Shown here in pieces: positions 4,188 to 20,478 of a stretch of 20,478 nucleotides of DNA. Position 1 is the first letter of the stretch, and each line of letters starts with the position of its first letter. Under the pieces are notes generated by a model. It searched no databases, was not told where the DNA came from, and was given only the letters and a program-made list of their open reading frames with translations. This stretch comes from Naegleria gruberi (taxonomy: Eukaryota). The stretch lies in the NCBI GenBank assembly GCA_000004985.1, contig GG738957.1; one strand, given 5' to 3'. The translations under genes were made by a program, and so were the position numbers.

Positions 4188-5738
4188 ATGAGTAATGATG
4201 ACAACGACGTGCCCATGACCCCAAGGAGAGCATCCAGACAAGTCCAAACCAAATTCAACTCTCGTGATTATGCTCTCGTATTTGAAGAAGCTATCAAAGA
4301 TAAGGACTGTAGAGCAATTTTTAAGAGATTTCTAAAGAAGAGTCGTTCGGAAGAGTTGATGCAATTTTATGAAGAATATACAAAATATGATGAATTATTC
4401 TTGGAATGTTTGAATGCTAGTAGTTCTGGCGGTTCAGGTGGGAAAGGAAGGAGGAGTACCACAACATCAAAATCTGATGAGGATGACACAGTTTCGAATA
4501 GATTGAGTGTTAATAGTGCAGACTCTTCGACTAAATTGTTTAGGAAAGCAATTCAAAAGTTGTGGATTCAGGCACAAAGCATGATAGGTAGATTTATTCA
4601 ACAAGGTGCTGAACATGAAATTAATATTGGAAGTTTACAGAGAATGACATTTTCTAGGTGGCAAATATTGGATGACTTGACACCTGTTGTTTTTCAAGAA
4701 GCTAATTGGACTGATAATGAATATCAAACACTGTTGAATGTTTATCAAACAAAATTGGATCCTAATGTGTTATTTGAAGGATTATTAATAGCAGTATTAC
4801 AGGATTTAAAGCATGACCAATTTCCAAGATTTGTCAGAAATGATTTACTATTCGATTACTTACAAAAGAAGGGTGAGGTCTACACAAGAGCTATTGCCAT
4901 CAATGTTTCACATGGATTTAATGTTGATGTAAGATTTCAACCAAGTGATTTACAAAGTAAGGTCATTGATGAAAAGATGATTTTCTTTGGATTCACACTT
5001 TTACAAGATACACCAGATTGGGAACTAATCCTCGATAAGGATGATATTCAAGGATACATGTCCAAGACCAGTTACTTCTTTGGAAAGGATACAAGTGTTG
5101 GAAAGGAGAAGAAGGGTTTACGGCTGCATAAATCTGTTTACACATTGCCTTTCTGTATTGAGGATGTTTGGAAAATGGTGTGTAATCAAGAAAATCATTT
5201 AAAATTTGATCCAAAAGCAAATGAGGAATTCAAATTGAGAGATTTTAGGGAACCAAATCAAGATTGTGAATTTGCTGTAACGGAAACAGAAATGGGACCA
5301 AAATTCATGCCCATCATGAAAAGAAGACACTTTCCATTTATTACAACAACTTTTTATGACTCTCGTTTGAAAGGTTATGTGGTTGTCTGTAGAAGTTTCA
5401 ATGATTCTGATAATCACACCGATAGAATTCACTATGATGGTTTTGCATATACCATGTACATACCAAATGGTGATAAGGCAACCAATGTTTTCATGATTGA
5501 CTACTCAGATATCAAAATGCCATTCAAGGCGGCCATTTTGGAGAATACAGCCTACAAATTCCACATTCCAACAGTTCAGAAGGGTATGGTTAAGGTATTG
5601 AATGAACTCACCAATAATAGCACAAAGAATGTAGAGTGGAATGAGTCTATGGATGGAAGACACTGGTGGAAAATGGCAGAATTGCACAAAAATCGTTATC
5701 CTAACAAGTCATGGTATGATGAGTGGTTGAAAAAGTAG
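4188..5738 (+). CDS. RGS-domain protein with a C-terminal START/Bet v1-like domain, 516 aa.
   Basis: ATG in context aaaaccATGagt. RGS signature FEEAIKDKDCRAIFKRFLKKSRSEELMQFYEEYTKYDEL ... AQSMIGRFIQQGAEHEINIGSLQRM, interrupted by a Ser/Gly-rich low-complexity insert. The C-terminal roughly 220 aa (RRHFPFITTTFYDSRLKGYVVVCRSF...HYDGFAYTMYIPNGDKATNVFMIDYSDIKMPF) resembles the START lipid-binding fold by eye. Single exon. Confidence 0.6.
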   Translation: MSNDDNDVPMTPRRASRQVQTKFNSRDYALVFEEAIKDKDCRAIFKRFLKKSRSEELMQFYEEYTKYDELFLECLNASSSGGSGGKGRRSTTTSKSDEDDTVSNRLSVNSADSSTKLFRKAIQKLWIQAQSMIGRFIQQGAEHEINIGSLQRMTFSRWQILDDLTPVVFQEANWTDNEYQTLLNVYQTKLDPNVLFEGLLIAVLQDLKHDQFPRFVRNDLLFDYLQKKGEVYTRAIAINVSHGFNVDVRFQPSDLQSKVIDEKMIFFGFTLLQDTPDWELILDKDDIQGYMSKTSYFFGKDTSVGKEKKGLRLHKSVYTLPFCIEDVWKMVCNQENHLKFDPKANEEFKLRDFREPNQDCEFAVTETEMGPKFMPIMKRRHFPFITTTFYDSRLKGYVVVCRSFNDSDNHTDRIHYDGFAYTMYIPNGDKATNVFMIDYSDIKMPFKAAILENTAYKFHIPTVQKGMVKVLNELTNNSTKNVEWNESMDGRHWWKMAELHKNRYPNKSWYDEWLKK

Positions 5739-5992
5739 CCCCAAAGACAGCAAGAAACCAAGTTTCTTCACTCAATAGTAATTACAACCATTTCAGATTC
5801 CCAATAAGACAAATTGCCGTTTGCAAACTAGAATTACTGAAATCTGAAGTTCAATATTGCTAATATTGCTAATGTTTTGTAGGTGAAAATAACCTAATCT
5901 ATTGCCAAAGCACCAGTAAGGATTTCCCTCAATTGTTCAAAGCAGCTGTATTGTTACTTATTTAAATTATTTATTTTTCTTTTTGAATCAAA

Positions 5993-7666
5993 TTAAAATT
6001 CATTTCCCTTCTTCTTTTTCAATTTGTCAACCTTAATCTTGTCAATCTTCATTTCACGTTGGAAAGCAAGAGATTGCTTGAATCTGTGATGAGTATCCAT
6101 CATAACGAGGCATGTTTCCTTTTCCAAAATGTTAAACATATCTTCTGGAAGAGTTTCAATTTGCTTATCATTGAATTTGTCCAACTTATCCTTAACAGAA
6201 TCCACCAAAACATGTGATATATTGACAGCCATATCACCAGTCACTTCCAAGAATTCAGTAAATATTTCAAAAGCAACTTCATACTTTTTGGCTTCAACTT
6301 CTGCATATTCCCTTTCAAGTGGAGATTCCTTCTTCTTCTTTGATGATTGAGCTGACTCTGCTGAAATATCACTCGAAATATCACTCAATGCATTATTTTC
6401 TTGTCCAAATAATCTCATTTGCAAGTCAATTGAACGTTCACATAACGTTCTATAATATTGAATCTTTTCAAGAAGTAAATAATTTTCAATTGACTTTTCC
6501 TTTTCACAATGAACCTTAAAAAGAGCTCTCAAACCATCATCTTCCATTGTGTCCATTAACATGATTGCATTGGCACGACGAATCTTTTCCAAATATAAAG
6601 AATCACGATTAATAGCATAGGTAAAAACAAAGACAATGATTGGCATAATGACAAATAGTGAAATTGCAATAACAATCAATTGTACCAATGTAATACCCAA
6701 TACTTGTGAATCCTTTTCCTTTTCTCTGTTTTGTATAAAGGCAACTAATTTATCCAGACCTGACTGGAAAATTGCTTTTTCAGAATAGAAATAATCAGAA
6801 CTAATCTTTTCAATTGAATCTTCTGGTTGAGTTTTCAGCATTATCAATGCTTGATTATTCAAAGATACTACCATATTAGAAGCTTCAATAGCTGTAGAAT
6901 TGAATAAAGTTTGAATTGACTTGTCATCCACAGTTTTGAAAATTAAAAGTAAAGTTGATTTCATATCAGCAGTCTTGTTTTTAAATTCATTAATCACAGC
7001 TGAGTGACTTGGTTCATCAACATATCCTGTATAGACATGTTTCAACACCACAGCATTTGAACTTTCGAATAGAGAAGTGACCTTTCCAACAGCAATTAAA
7101 ATATCAGTTGCCTTTGTACTAGCAGTTGCAAATGCAGCAATTGCAACACCTGCCAAAACCAACAAACCAATGACAGTAACCAACATTCCCAATAAACAAG
7201 CCAATTTCATTGAAGTCAACTCAACCACACCACAACATGTACGTAAAGTAATTTTACTCTGACTAAATGAACTACCTGATTTACCACTTTCACTTGGTTG
7301 TCCAAAACCTACTTGAGATTGTCCAAGTTTCGTATTACCATTCACAGCACTACCAGATTGAATCGTAACTTGTTTCTTTCCATTACTATTATTATTAATA
7401 TTACCAGTGATACTTGTTCCACCATTTGTTTTGTTGGGATTATTAGGATTGCTGGTAATGAATGTATTTGTGTTTGGTGGTGTAAATTGATATTGTTGTT
7501 GAGTGGTTGGTTGTTGTTGTTGTTGTAGTGGAGGAGAGGATGAAGTTGAAGCCAATTCTATTGAAGTGGGGTTTGTTGTGTTAATAATATTGTTGGAATC
7601 ATGACTGTTGGAGAGTATTATTGGTGGTGGAGAGGTGGATGTCTCCGGAGAGGTTGTATTCATCAT
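5993..7666 (-). CDS. Receptor-like RGS protein, 557 aa: S/T/N/Q-rich N-terminus, TM1, about 160-aa extracellular loop, TM2, cytoplasmic RGS domain.
   Basis: Two strong TM helices (LACLLGMLVTVIGLLVLAGVAIAAFA and VLGITLVQLIVIAISLFVIMPIIVFVFTYAI). RGS motifs GLRALFKVHCEKEKSIENYLLLEKIQYYR ... KKYEVAFEIFTEFLEVTGDMAVNISHVL ... MMDTHHRFKQSLAFQ. Convergent with the previous gene, with 254 bp between the stops. Confidence 0.65.
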   Translation of the reverse strand: MMNTTSPETSTSPPPIILSNSHDSNNIINTTNPTSIELASTSSSPPLQQQQQPTTQQQYQFTPPNTNTFITSNPNNPNKTNGGTSITGNINNNSNGKKQVTIQSGSAVNGNTKLGQSQVGFGQPSESGKSGSSFSQSKITLRTCCGVVELTSMKLACLLGMLVTVIGLLVLAGVAIAAFATASTKATDILIAVGKVTSLFESSNAVVLKHVYTGYVDEPSHSAVINEFKNKTADMKSTLLLIFKTVDDKSIQTLFNSTAIEASNMVVSLNNQALIMLKTQPEDSIEKISSDYFYSEKAIFQSGLDKLVAFIQNREKEKDSQVLGITLVQLIVIAISLFVIMPIIVFVFTYAINRDSLYLEKIRRANAIMLMDTMEDDGLRALFKVHCEKEKSIENYLLLEKIQYYRTLCERSIDLQMRLFGQENNALSDISSDISAESAQSSKKKKESPLEREYAEVEAKKYEVAFEIFTEFLEVTGDMAVNISHVLVDSVKDKLDKFNDKQIETLPEDMFNILEKETCLVMMDTHHRFKQSLAFQREMKIDKIKVDKLKKKKGNEF

Positions 7667-15045: not shown

Positions 15046-15099
15046 ATTATTACTGAAGAGTGGACACATTTTGGCGAGTGACGATTGGCGAAGATCTCC
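15046..15099 (+). repeat. Left terminal inverted repeat of the MULE-like element.
   Basis: See the element entry. It contains the palindromic core cgattgg-cgaagatct-ccaatcg. Confidence 0.7.
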
Positions 15100-15280
15100 A
15101 ATCGCATATTCCATTTCGTATACTTGAACTTTCGCCAATTTCATGTACGTGAACTAAGGAATCGTAAAATTTATGTGGCGAAAAAGCAATTAAGGAACAA
15201 TAAAATGGAAATTCCAATTTATTATTCCAATTAAAAAATCTTTACAAAACCGTTACATTTTGTAAAGTAGTTTTCGAGAG

Positions 15281-15287
15281 TATAAAT
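15281..15287 (+). promoter_or_regulatory. Candidate TATA box (TATAAAT) for the transposase gene.
   Basis: gagagTATAAATggaaag lies 44 bp upstream of ATG 15331, inside the element. Confidence 0.3.
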
Positions 15288-15330
15288 GGAAAGAATTTAA
15301 AGTTATTCATACAATTTAGTTCACTAAAAA

Positions 15331-17364
15331 ATGTCCTCACGTTCTCACAGATTCACCATCAACAACGTATTCAAAGATTCAACACCAAGCATTGAGGTTA
15401 ACGAAGAATCTAAATTCGATAAGCTGTCCTTCCCTTCTGTTGGCACTCTTTATCATTCTTCTACCATTTCTGATCCATTTAAATCTCTTATTCAATACAA
15501 CATTAAATTAAATGGAGAAAAGCCAAGAGAGATTGATGGCAAGGTTTACCAATTTCAAAGTGGTAAATGTAAAGGTTGTAAACAGTGCACAGCTAGTGGG
15601 TGTTCACTTTGTTACAATCTTAATTCAAAGAGAAAGCTGTGTCCTGTTCATAATTGCAATTTGGAACATAGAAAGTGTAATACCAAATTTTATATTGGCT
15701 CAACCAGTCAAGACCAGTTCGTCTATTCTTCTTCTTGTCATTCACATCCAAATCCACCTCCAAGAAAGATTCCTCCAAGCCAAAGACTTGAAATGGGTGC
15801 TGCATTTCAAAACAATACTACTCTTACAGCCAAAGATGTATCATTGGGTATTGGATTATCTGAAATTCCTGCTTTTGAAAATAGAGCATGTGCAAATATT
15901 TCAAGAATTCAATCCATCAAAAGGCAAGCTCTAAAATTGGGTGGCTCATCTCCTTCCTTGGTTATTTTGAAAGTTGAAGAACAACATGTACCAGATTTTC
16001 AAAAGAAAATGAAAGATGTTGATCCTTCAGATTTACAATGGGTCAGAAACATTGTAAACGACGTGGATAATTCTTTGATTCATACACAATTTCCATTATT
16101 TTCTAAAATAATTAAGGAGAAGGCGAATTTTCTGGTAATAGATTTAAAGCATAAGTCAAAAGCAGGTCCTTATTATCATCACCTTGGTTTTTCTTCTTTT
16201 ATTGAAGAACAAAAGGGAGGTCATTCAATCCAATTATGTAGAATTCTAATGGAAGAACAAACATATCAAGAACCGTTTCTATTATTTCTAAACACTCTTG
16301 AAAAAGATGGTTGTAATTTGAATGAATTGTTTGTTGGGCCTAACTGTAAAATCAAAGGGATTTTGGTTGATTTTAGCCAATTTCAATTAAAAGGTTTAAA
16401 AGACGCCTTTAGGGTAAAGTTTGGAGAAAAAGGTGATTCTATAATTGATGAATTGGTTTCAGGTTGTTTCGTACATTTCCTTCGTTCAGCAAGAAGATTG
16501 GTAAATTCGCTGCCAATAGAACAAGAATACAGAAATCTGGTTTTCAAAATGTTGGAAAGTGTTAAAGAATTTAAGAAAGAAGATGAAATCATCCATATCA
16601 TCAATGCTATTGAGGTATTCTGTGCAGGAGCAGCAACTTGGTGTACTTGGTGGAAGCAACCACATATCTTGAAATTGCTTCTTGCAAAAAGTTCCCAAGA
16701 AAATGATATACCAAGACATACAAACCACCAAGAAATTCTTAATGTAAACGTACCAACCTATGGAGGTAACTATGTCATTGAATCAGAGATGCTCTTGAGA
16801 GAAGATATGTTGGCATTGATAAGATATTTGAGTCTTTGTTCTGGTGTGGAATTATCATATAGAAATACTACTAAGCAAGGGAGAGAGAAGAGAAATCTGT
16901 CTCGTAAACAAGCTCAATTCGATAGTAGACCAGCAGATACTGTGGCTAGAGGAATAGTTCCAACCAATGTTTCGACAATAAGTGTTATCAAGAATTTCGT
17001 TCAAGGAGTGGAAGAAATGGAAAGGAAGAAGCTTGATGATTTTGCAGGAGAGCAAGCTGACGATTTGAATGACAAAGATTTTACTCCTACTGGATCCGTT
17101 GAACCTGCAAAACAAAAGAGAACCCCTCGAACTCCAAAGAAAGGCGTAAAAAGAGCAGCCAAGCCTTCACCCTCTCAAACTAAGAAGAAGTCAAAGGTGA
17201 TTGAAGACGAATATTCCAGTAGCTCATCTGATGGATTTGAGAGTGCTGCCAGTAATTCTATTACTGATGAGTCCGAAAGTGAATCTGATTCCATTCGTGA
17301 TACTGAGATATTCACAAGATCCAAAGGATTAATTGGAGATCCAAATAGATCTGAAAGTGCTTAA
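15331..17364 (+). CDS. MULE-type DDE transposase, 677 aa: N-terminal Cys-rich zinc-finger-like region, DDE catalytic core with CxxH, and a basic/acidic Ser-rich C-terminal tail.
   Basis: Cys cluster CKGCKQCTASGCSLCYNLNSKRKLCPVHNCNLEHRKC...SSCHSH. First Asp in NFLVIDLKHK (D271). Second Asp in KGILVDFSQFQLKGLKDAF (D347). Diagnostic MULE CxxH in SGCFVHFLRSARR. The catalytic Glu lies in HTNHQEILN, matching the T-N-x-x-E-x-x-N motif of MuDR-family transposases. The D-D spacing is 76 and D-E is 121. TATAAAT lies at 15281..15287, 44 bp upstream of the ATG. Confidence 0.65.
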   Translation: MSSRSHRFTINNVFKDSTPSIEVNEESKFDKLSFPSVGTLYHSSTISDPFKSLIQYNIKLNGEKPREIDGKVYQFQSGKCKGCKQCTASGCSLCYNLNSKRKLCPVHNCNLEHRKCNTKFYIGSTSQDQFVYSSSCHSHPNPPPRKIPPSQRLEMGAAFQNNTTLTAKDVSLGIGLSEIPAFENRACANISRIQSIKRQALKLGGSSPSLVILKVEEQHVPDFQKKMKDVDPSDLQWVRNIVNDVDNSLIHTQFPLFSKIIKEKANFLVIDLKHKSKAGPYYHHLGFSSFIEEQKGGHSIQLCRILMEEQTYQEPFLLFLNTLEKDGCNLNELFVGPNCKIKGILVDFSQFQLKGLKDAFRVKFGEKGDSIIDELVSGCFVHFLRSARRLVNSLPIEQEYRNLVFKMLESVKEFKKEDEIIHIINAIEVFCAGAATWCTWWKQPHILKLLLAKSSQENDIPRHTNHQEILNVNVPTYGGNYVIESEMLLREDMLALIRYLSLCSGVELSYRNTTKQGREKRNLSRKQAQFDSRPADTVARGIVPTNVSTISVIKNFVQGVEEMERKKLDDFAGEQADDLNDKDFTPTGSVEPAKQKRTPRTPKKGVKRAAKPSPSQTKKKSKVIEDEYSSSSSDGFESAASNSITDESESESDSIRDTEIFTRSKGLIGDPNRSESA

Positions 17365-17561
17365 TTGAAAGCTGCTAGAAAACATGGTGTTGACTCTTCT
17401 AAAAGAATTTCTTTGTAATTTTAATAACAAATACCCAACAAATGTTGGAATTTTTGGTTTATTTGTTTCTTTTTCCAAAAACTTAATCGCAATTTTCATC
17501 TGGAGATTTTCGCCAATCTCCAATTTCATTAAGCGAATGAAACCATTCGCAAAATTCAAGT

Positions 17562-17603
17562 GGCGATTTTCGCCAATCGTCGATCGCCAAAATGTGTATA
17601 CTC
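17562..17603 (-). repeat. Right terminal inverted repeat of the MULE-like element.
   Basis: ggcgattttcgccaatcgtcgatcgccaaaatgtgtatactc is the reverse complement of the left end, with 4 mismatches in 36 bp. Confidence 0.7.
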
Positions 17604-17823
17604 TATTCACCGAAATATATACTCAATGATATACATCATTAAATAGGTTACAATCTCAGCTATCCAGTGGGCTATAGATTGTGTATGGTTTCTTATCTAA
17701 TTATTGAGATAATCAGCAATTGTTATAGGCGATAAAAACTCGAATGGAGATTCAGGCAATTAAATTCGTTGGTATGGACGTGCCAGGCGAAAAATAACTG
17801 GAGCAAGGTACTATTAAATAAGT

Positions 17824-19439
17824 NNNNNNNNNNNNNNNNNNNNNNNNNNNNNNNNNNNNNNNNNNNNNNNNNNNNNNNNNNNNNNNNNNNNNNNNNNNNN
17901 NNNNNNNNNNNNNNNNNNNNNNNNNNNNNNNNNNNNNNNNNNNNNNNNNNNNNNNNNNNNNNNNNNNNNNNNNNNNNNNNNNNNNNNNNNNNNNNNNNNN
18001 NNNNNNNNNNNNNNNNNNNNNNNNNNNNNNNNNNNNNNNNNNNNNNNNNNNNNNNNNNNNNNNNNNNNNNNNNNNNNNNNNNNNNNNNNNNNNNNNNNNN
18101 NNNNNNNNNNNNNNNNNNNNNNNNNNNNNNNNNNNNNNNNNNNNNNNNNNNNNNNNNNNNNNNNNNNNNNNNNNNNNNNNNNNNNNNNNNNNNNNNNNNN
18201 NNNNNNNNNNNNNNNNNNNNNNNNNNNNNNNNNNNNNNNNNNNNNNNNNNNNNNNNNNNNNNNNNNNNNNNNNNNNNNNNNNNNNNNNNNNNNNNNNNNN
18301 NNNNNNNNNNNNNNNNNNNNNNNNNNNNNNNNNNNNNNNNNNNNNNNNNNNNNNNNNNNNNNNNNNNNNNNNNNNNNNNNNNNNNNNNNNNNNNNNNNNN
18401 NNNNNNNNNNNNNNNNNNNNNNNNNNNNNNNNNNNNNNNNNNNNNNNNNNNNNNNNNNNNNNNNNNNNNNNNNNNNNNNNNNNNNNNNNNNNNNNNNNNN
18501 NNNNNNNNNNNNNNNNNNNNNNNNNNNNNNNNNNNNNNNNNNNNNNNNNNNNNNNNNNNNNNNNNNNNNNNNNNNNNNNNNNNNNNNNNNNNNNNNNNNN
18601 NNNNNNNNNNNNNNNNNNNNNNNNNNNNNNNNNNNNNNNNNNNNNNNNNNNNNNNNNNNNNNNNNNNNNNNNNNNNNNNNNNNNNNNNNNNNNNNNNNNN
18701 NNNNNNNNNNNNNNNNNNNNNNNNNNNNNNNNNNNNNNNNNNNNNNNNNNNNNNNNNNNNNNNNNNNNNNNNNNNNNNNNNNNNNNNNNNNNNNNNNNNN
18801 NNNNNNNNNNNNNNNNNNNNNNNNNNNNNNNNNNNNNNNNNNNNNNNNNNNNNNNNNNNNNNNNNNNNNNNNNNNNNNNNNNNNNNNNNNNNNNNNNNNN
18901 NNNNNNNNNNNNNNNNNNNNNNNNNNNNNNNNNNNNNNNNNNNNNNNNNNNNNNNNNNNNNNNNNNNNNNNNNNNNNNNNNNNNNNNNNNNNNNNNNNNN
19001 NNNNNNNNNNNNNNNNNNNNNNNNNNNNNNNNNNNNNNNNNNNNNNNNNNNNNNNNNNNNNNNNNNNNNNNNNNNNNNNNNNNNNNNNNNNNNNNNNNNN
19101 NNNNNNNNNNNNNNNNNNNNNNNNNNNNNNNNNNNNNNNNNNNNNNNNNNNNNNNNNNNNNNNNNNNNNNNNNNNNNNNNNNNNNNNNNNNNNNNNNNNN
19201 NNNNNNNNNNNNNNNNNNNNNNNNNNNNNNNNNNNNNNNNNNNNNNNNNNNNNNNNNNNNNNNNNNNNNNNNNNNNNNNNNNNNNNNNNNNNNNNNNNNN
19301 NNNNNNNNNNNNNNNNNNNNNNNNNNNNNNNNNNNNNNNNNNNNNNNNNNNNNNNNNNNNNNNNNNNNNNNNNNNNNNNNNNNNNNNNNNNNNNNNNNNN
19401 NNNNNNNNNNNNNNNNNNNNNNNNNNNNNNNNNNNNNNN
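17824..19439. other. Assembly gap (1616 N) between the unique subtelomeric sequence and the telomere-associated sequence.
   Basis: The run of n is continuous. The ORFs reported across it (17723..19462, 17752..19446 and 17769..19457) are artefacts of translating N. Confidence 0.99.
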
Positions 19440-20234
19440 GTATCAATAGTTATATGATTCATGATAGTTTAAAATTGACTTGGTCATCTAAGGACAGGTA
19501 ATTAAGGGTTGAATGAATTGATATGAAATTCAATACCAATTATTGATATACCATGTTAAATTGATCTATATATGATATTATAATTGAAAGATTTTAAAAT
19601 TAATATGATTTCATTTTCTTGATATTCATAATTCTCATGATTACACTCCTGACATGTTGAATGAGTTCAAATTGTCATGAGACTGATACAGTGGTGTTTA
19701 TTCATCATTGGCAAGGTACTGTATCAATTATATGATGATCTGTATAGTAGATGTCATTGTCACATCCCTGTAGGTATCAAGTGGATCAGCCATGTACCAT
19801 GTATGATATGGATGATCTTCAAAATCAAATAGATATATTTTATTATCATGTATAGATGTATTAGAAGTGAATTGAAGTGGGAAAGATTTCTATCTTCAGT
19901 GTTAGTATAGGTCAGTTGACAAGTTGAATAGTAAACATCCTGATATGATACCAAAGTATTTGAAATTGATATATATTGTTATTAACATGATTTAAAAGGT
20001 GATATATTGATTTGAAATGATTTTGAAATGTTTTCATTGATATTCTAATTGTCTAATCTATTATATGAAATTAACTTATATAAGTCATTATAATGATGTA
20101 ATATTATGTTATAATATGATTATATATTCAATTTGGAGTATATTGATATATAATATATTGATTTATAATGAGTATTTATTGAGATAATTAATTAAGATTA
20201 ATAAAAGTCAAAATGTTGGGTCTGACCTTAGTCG
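19440..20234. repeat. AT-rich, low-complexity telomere-associated (subtelomeric) sequence with short gatat/tgaaatg-type motif repeats; non-coding.
   Basis: Very low GC, with reiterated motifs such as gatatattgatttgaaatgattttgaaatg and tgatatataatatattgatttataatg. No credible ORF. It directly abuts the telomeric array. Confidence 0.6.
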
Positions 20235-20478
20235 TGGGTTTGGGTTTGGTTAACCTGGGGGTTGGGTTTGGGTTTGGGTTTGGGTTTGGGTTTGGGTTTG
20301 GGTTTGGGTTTGGGTTTGGGTTTGGGTTTGGGTTTGGGTTTGGGTTTGGGTTTGGGTTTGGGTTTGGGTTTGGGTTTGGGTTTGGGTTTGGGTTTGGGTT
20401 TGGGTTTGGGTTTGGGTTTGGGTTGGGTTTGGGTTTGGGTTTGGGTCTGGGTTTGGGTTTGGGTTTGGGTTTGGGTTA
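20235..20478 (+). repeat. Telomeric repeat array (TTTGGG)n, about 40 units, G-rich strand 5'->3' towards the window end, with degenerate proximal units and rare variants (GGGTT, GGGTCT).
   Basis: gggtttgggtttgggttt... repeats perfectly from about 20263 to 20478 and runs off the end. The proximal units are variants, gtgggtttgggtttggttaacctgggggtt. One 5-mer unit lies near 20424 and a C-variant near 20447. Confidence 0.9.

Follow-up and report, generated by a model that had tools for sequence, protein, structure and literature searches.

In Naegleria gruberi NEG-M, positions 20236-20478 of the scaffold analyzed here very probably represent a real chromosome terminus, one that carries a canonical telomere of TTTGGG repeats. 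The window, meaning the whole stretch of 20,478 nucleotides that was analyzed, is one entire, small scaffold of the Sanger-era N. gruberi NEG-M assembly, and the evidence on N. gruberi ends presented here comes from this one scaffold end. The features that favor a telomere are a G-rich tandem hexamer, strict polarity, a location at the outermost edge of the scaffold, and a short proximal variant zone, with an AT-rich, gene-free subtelomere lying inboard of the array. TTTGGG as a putative telomere repeat of N. gruberi is already known, and the present finding is a rediscovery of a candidate published from in silico data (Fulneckova et al., 2013, Genome Biol Evol 5:468; PMC3622300).

The array opens with a G at 20236 (20235 is a T), and its last base is also the last base of the scaffold, the 243 bp recovered being a lower bound on the length of the real tract. 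Parsed into G-initiated units, it contains 40, of which 35 are perfect GGGTTT and the remainder are GGTTAACCT, GGGGGTT, GGGTT, GGGTCT, and a final GGGTTA. Perfect units occur in runs of 2 (20236-20247), 26 (20264-20419, the longest), 3 (20425-20442), and 4 (20449-20472). Tandem Repeats Finder described the array with a period of 6, 36.8 copies, 97% matches, and a score of 419. When a three-unit probe was matched with at most one mismatch, all 33 matches in the window fell on the + strand and within 20258-20478, against an expectation of 0.00 from 100 dinucleotide-preserving shuffles of the window. Runs of two or more AAACCC units were absent from the entire window, left end included. The confinement of all matches to the + strand, together with the absence of AAACCC runs, means that the G-rich strand runs 5' to 3' towards the scaffold end, and the latter absence also marks the left scaffold end as an ordinary assembly break. 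The array therefore combines tandem repetition of a short T/G-rich unit with a G-rich strand that points 5' to 3' at the end of the molecule. An initial annotation, made from the letters of the window, had described about 40 GGGTTT units at the window end with the G-strand facing outward, and its coordinates, count, and polarity all proved correct.

The same annotation had drawn attention to degenerate units in the proximal part of the array, and here it was right in part. The variant block at 20248-20263 bears it out (Table 1), but the 'GGGTCTGACC' that it quoted sits just upstream of the array. The bases directly inboard of the array read TTGGGTCTGACC and include GGGTCT at 20218-20223. Since GGGTCT is a variant that recurs at 20443-20448, within the array, the junction at 20216-20235 may be a decayed proximal repeat. 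The distal variants, namely GGGTT at 20420-20424, GGGTCT at 20443-20448, and GGGTTA at 20473-20478, had been missed. These odd units fall approximately 980 to 1,039 bases from the start of the 1,039-bp contig, and Sanger read quality is typically low at that distance. We therefore read no biology into them, low-quality read tails being as likely an explanation as true variants.

Table 1. Features of the right-hand end of the window, in order of position
Feature	Position	Strand	Remarks
Left terminal inverted repeat, 54 nt	15057-15110		81% complementary to the right copy; both begin AGAGT..ACACATTTTGGCGA
ORF of 677 aa, last gene before the gap	15331-17364	+	Lies in element 15057-17604
Right terminal inverted repeat, 54 nt	17551-17604		Partner of the left copy
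Assembly gap, 1,616 N	17824-19439		Sole link of the 1,039-bp telomere contig to the gene-bearing contig
Array-bearing contig, 1,039 bp	19440-20478
Subtelomeric stretch, 796 bp	19440-20235		25.3% G+C, versus 34.1% in the gene-bearing part
Junction sequence TTGGGTCTGACCTTAGTCGT	20216-20235	+	Opens with telomere-like TTGGGTCT; sequence only
Telomere-type tandem array (GGGTTT)n	20236-20478	+	Sequence read directly, Tandem Repeats Finder, shuffles
Proximal variant block GGTTAACCT-GGGGGTT, i.e., GGTTAACCTGGGGGTT	20248-20263	+	Read from sequence; breaks the array after the first two perfect units

The identity of the gene-bearing part of the scaffold was established by exact-sequence look-up, in which four long ORF translations were identical to N. 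gruberi proteins EFC36021, EFC36023, EFC36025, and EFC36026. N. gruberi belongs to the Heterolobosea, within Discoba. Genes on the scaffold encode two RGS-domain proteins, an adenylate/guanylate cyclase, a BAHD-type transferase, and a TmcB-like TPR protein. The window has a G+C content of 33%, and its proteins carry Asn/Gln runs. Together with the RGS and cyclase genes, these traits at first suggested a dictyostelid such as Polysphondylium or D. fasciculatum, a reading that the identical N. gruberi proteins overturned. Ten long ORFs end at TAA (6), TAG (1), or TGA (3), and the use of all three codons as stops indicates the standard code. The initial annotation had inferred an AT-rich, standard-code genome that is not that of a ciliate, which the analysis supports, and the gap of 1,616 N that it mentioned is indeed present. 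Independent support for gene order at 4188-7666 comes from metagenome loci L001 and L002 (ENA/Logan run ERR1078381), where a contig carries the RGS-gene pair of this region with 96% and 100% amino acid identity, although this has no bearing on the link to the telomere. To judge from these identities, the sample behind ERR1078381 contains N. gruberi or a very close relative.

A further observation concerns the gene at 5993-7666 on the - strand. Over the N-terminal 250 amino acids, its product shares 97% identity with protein EFC35707, which comes from an N. gruberi scaffold of 8,551 bp, and indels are restricted to Gln/Asn low-complexity runs. The 8,551-bp scaffold is probably the other haplotype of region 5993-7666, which would mean that alleles are split in the draft assembly.

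Between the gap and the array lies a stretch that contains only short mechanical ORFs of at most 64 amino acids and a few short low-complexity AT-rich repeats. No 14-mer is common to this stretch and the rest of the scaffold, except for one chance match. It matched no Rfam family and, by blastn, none of 122 metagenome loci, and the exact 23-mer spanning the junction was absent from the metagenome contigs searched.

On the other side of the gap, the last gene before it lies within what looks, from its sequence features, like a divergent Mutator-like DNA transposon adjoining the subtelomere. Of its 677-amino-acid protein, a 99%-identical copy 271 amino acids long is encoded on a second N. gruberi scaffold (218,836 bp). 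Searched directly against Pfam and PDB, the protein gave no match. An exhaustive HMMER search of 1.84 billion proteins recovered relatives numbering 61 representatives at an E value of ≤0.001, and a profile built from 26 family members gave a weak match (E = 0.0034) to PDB entry 6xg8, a transposase of the Mutator family. One family member weakly matches Pfam MULE and SWIM, and two members have chromodomains. In the 26-member alignment, D347 is invariant and the consensus contains a GCxxH motif. Only a two-sequence alignment showed a downstream NxxE and, upstream, what may be an acidic residue of the same set (D271). Structure prediction of the protein (AlphaFold, with a 2-sequence alignment) gave a mean pLDDT of 33.9 and was unusable. 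Inside the right end of the element, two 32-nt direct repeats (17487-17578, TCGCAAWWTTCA..GGMGATTTTCGCCAATC) are 84% identical and lie 60 nt apart, and the motif TTTCGCCAAT occurs again near the left end of the element (15130-15143). These direct repeats and TTTCGCCAAT may be subterminal transposase-binding repeats.

An alternative hypothesis accepts a real N. gruberi telomere but holds that the assembly joined it to the wrong genes. Mate pairs would have misplaced the 1,039-bp contig across the 1,616-N gap, its true position being another chromosome end or the other haplotype. We regard this as improbable, while considering it the likeliest of the alternatives. The contig is tied to the genes solely through the gap, and the two sides of the gap have no sequence in common. 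Repeats such as the transposon-like element that ends the pre-gap sequence, with its 99%-identical copy on another scaffold, can mislead mate-pair scaffolding, which makes an error of this kind more plausible, and the assembly contains near-identical, allelic-looking scaffolds. Against this, a misplacement has no positive support, and multiple mate pairs underlie gap sizes in such assemblies. Were the contig misplaced nonetheless, the nature of the repeat would be unchanged.

A second alternative treats the array as a telomere-like microsatellite in an interstitial position, where the assembly happened to break, rather than as a physical chromosome end. Because assemblers break at repeats, a position at the end of an assembled sequence is weak evidence by itself, and we therefore scanned metagenome contigs for (GGGTTT)6, using the resulting loci (at least 120) solely to calibrate terminal against internal arrays. 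None of these loci was related to the window by tblastn or blastn among the matches listed. Among the matches listed, at least 80 arrays were internal, at least 28 were terminal and outward, and at least 12 were terminal and inward. Such numbers favor caution, as do the internal telomeric blocks reported from many genomes in the 2013 survey (PMC3622300), and we treat scaffold-end position alone as moderately informative. What weighs against an interstitial origin is the combination of outward orientation with a long and pure array and with two features typical of true ends, namely a variant zone on the proximal side and a flank that is AT-rich and free of genes. The longest perfect run in the window comprises 26 units, compared to a maximum of 20 among the metagenome matches listed, a figure that is limited by short-read assembly. 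An interstitial block has unique sequence on both sides; here nothing lies beyond the array in the assembly, though undetected distal sequence is possible. In addition, the 2013 survey, relying on repeat position and orientation, singled out TTTGGG as the N. gruberi telomere candidate (PMC3622300). Taken together, we consider an interstitial array very unlikely.

One locus in the calibration set deserves separate mention. L066 (LUMJ01000369.1) has 10 CCCAAA units at the contig start (array at 2-61, terminal and outward), next to genes that look archaeal, encoding AcnX, NFACT, a class II aminoacyl-tRNA synthetase, and a primase large subunit. Such genes are unexpected neighbors for a telomere-like repeat, and the L066 array is therefore probably not a telomere; a chimera in the assembly or a microsatellite that arose by coincidence could account for it.

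The weakest alternative invokes contamination or a cloning artefact, such as Paramecium-type ciliate DNA or a chimeric clone, and is scarcely credible. TTTGGG units are indeed best known from Paramecium, but its telomeres mix GGGKTT units, GGGGTT among them, whereas the present array has 35 GGGTTT units out of 40 and lacks GGGGTT. The array contig is scaffolded to N. gruberi genes, and the motif is the candidate telomere reported for the N. gruberi genome (PMC3622300).

Returning to the preferred reading of a canonical N. gruberi telomere, what is seen directly is DNA anatomy, and the enzymology outlined here is drawn from general telomere biology. Telomerase would add TTTGGG to the 3' end by copying an RNA template, predicted to hold about 1.5 repeats complementary to TTTGGG (CCCAAA-type, e.g., 3'-AAACCCAAAC-5'). 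The TTTGGG tract would terminate in a 3' G-overhang and would be capped by sequence-specific end-protection proteins of the Myb/OB-fold kind. As TTTGGG is one base away from TTAGGG, a single template mutation suffices for the change, and the N. gruberi repeat could have arisen from TTAGGG through one such substitution. The G-strand (GGGTTT)3GGG folds into a G-quadruplex experimentally, like other telomeric G-strands (PMC3082875). Template-like 8- to 10-mers of the repeat were absent from the 20-kb window outside the array, which is expected at 20 kb and uninformative either way. The window likewise gave no Rfam match. The initial annotation had gone further, taking the array to show conventional telomerase-type ends in this lineage. 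That statement was drawn from the repeat alone, and the authors of the 2013 survey themselves still call for experimental tests to confirm terminal position (PMC3622300).

The novelty that had been claimed for a pure TTTGGG telomere outside the ciliates does not hold, since this repeat had already been published as a candidate for N. gruberi from the same assembly. Fulneckova and colleagues surveyed 143 genome assemblies in silico for TnAmGo repeats, judged candidates by position and orientation, and put TTTGGG forward as the N. gruberi candidate from the same public assembly (PMC3622300). The same paper infers TTAGGG as the ancestral type of Excavata, with variants secondarily derived. Searches of the literature found no Bal31, TRF, or TRAP data for Naegleria, no paper on a Naegleria TERT gene or telomerase RNA, and no paper later than the 2013 survey on telomere-to-telomere Naegleria assemblies. 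Nanopore R9 and R10 reads of N. gruberi have, however, been produced (PMC12695648). Pulsed-field gels indicate at least 12 chromosomes in N. gruberi, giving 24 or more ends, or twice as many where haplotypes are split. The present scaffold is one concrete instance of the 2013 candidate, to which it adds unit-level anatomy, the composition of the subtelomere, and a caveat about the gap. It flags one probable chromosome end of the draft assembly, which carries little weight beyond record-keeping, and it illustrates in Heterolobosea a single-base variant of the ancestral TTAGGG already published in silico. In practical terms, the array is an anchor for scaffold closure and can supply probes or primers for Bal31, TRF, and TRAP assays, and the repeat sets a template constraint for a search for Naegleria telomerase RNA, namely CCCAAACCC-type templates.

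Terminal TTTGGG arrays were also found in an environmental whole-genome shotgun project (JAESGV01), in which at least 12 contigs have ends of outward, pure (TTTGGG)n that directly adjoin unrelated unique sequence (L007, L030, L031, L042, L056, L080, L082, L086, L087, L088, L108, and L122). JAESGV01 may come from a further lineage whose telomeres are pure TTTGGG. L088 carries genes for a Ty3-like pol and two PPR-DYW deaminases. Genes for PPR-DYW editing factors are known from Naegleria and from few other non-plant lineages. Homologue searches with a P4-ATPase fragment and a PPR-DYW protein from JAESGV01 found no close named relative. We speculate, and think it rather doubtful, that pure TTTGGG telomeres mark a wider, mostly unsampled clade of protists beyond N. 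gruberi. If the JAESGV01 organism were heterolobosean, the A-to-T change in the template would be old and clade-defining, and a conserved CCCAAA-type template would offer a handle on heterolobosean telomerase RNA.

Compared with known telomeres, the array is closest to the N. gruberi candidate of 2013, with which it shares organism, assembly, motif, and kind of evidence, and from which it shows no substantive difference (PMC3622300). Paramecium telomeres (GGGKTT, a mixture of TTGGGG and TTTGGG) likewise place the TTTGGG unit in G-rich terminal tandem arrays. [quoted passage not shown] In contrast, the N. gruberi array consists of TTTGGG in essentially pure form, GGGGTT being absent and GGGGGTT occurring once, and it belongs to a heterolobosean genome with the standard code rather than to a ciliate nuclear genome with reassigned TAA and TAG. 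A degenerate telomere of the Paramecium type was accordingly ruled out by the lack of GGGGTT, the use of TAA, TAG, and TGA as stops, and the N. gruberi proteins.

The initial annotation had also contrasted the array with the ends of Dictyostelium discoideum chromosomes, which has little bearing on a member of Heterolobosea and Discoba. Both organisms are amoeboid with AT-rich genomes, but they belong to unrelated supergroups. Chromosome ends of D. discoideum carry rDNA-derived sequence and irregular A-G(1-8) repeats. In Naegleria the rDNA is on a circular plasmid of approximately 14 to 15 kb, and the D. discoideum contrast says nothing specific about the Naegleria lineage. A further comparison is with the human-type TTAGGG repeat used by the related kinetoplastids, the best-studied Discoba. 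It too is a three-G hexamer of the same polarity, and the telomerase mechanism is presumably the same. TTTGGG in N. gruberi differs from it by an A-to-T change at position 3 and is, on the account given in the 2013 survey, a secondarily derived variant (PMC3622300).
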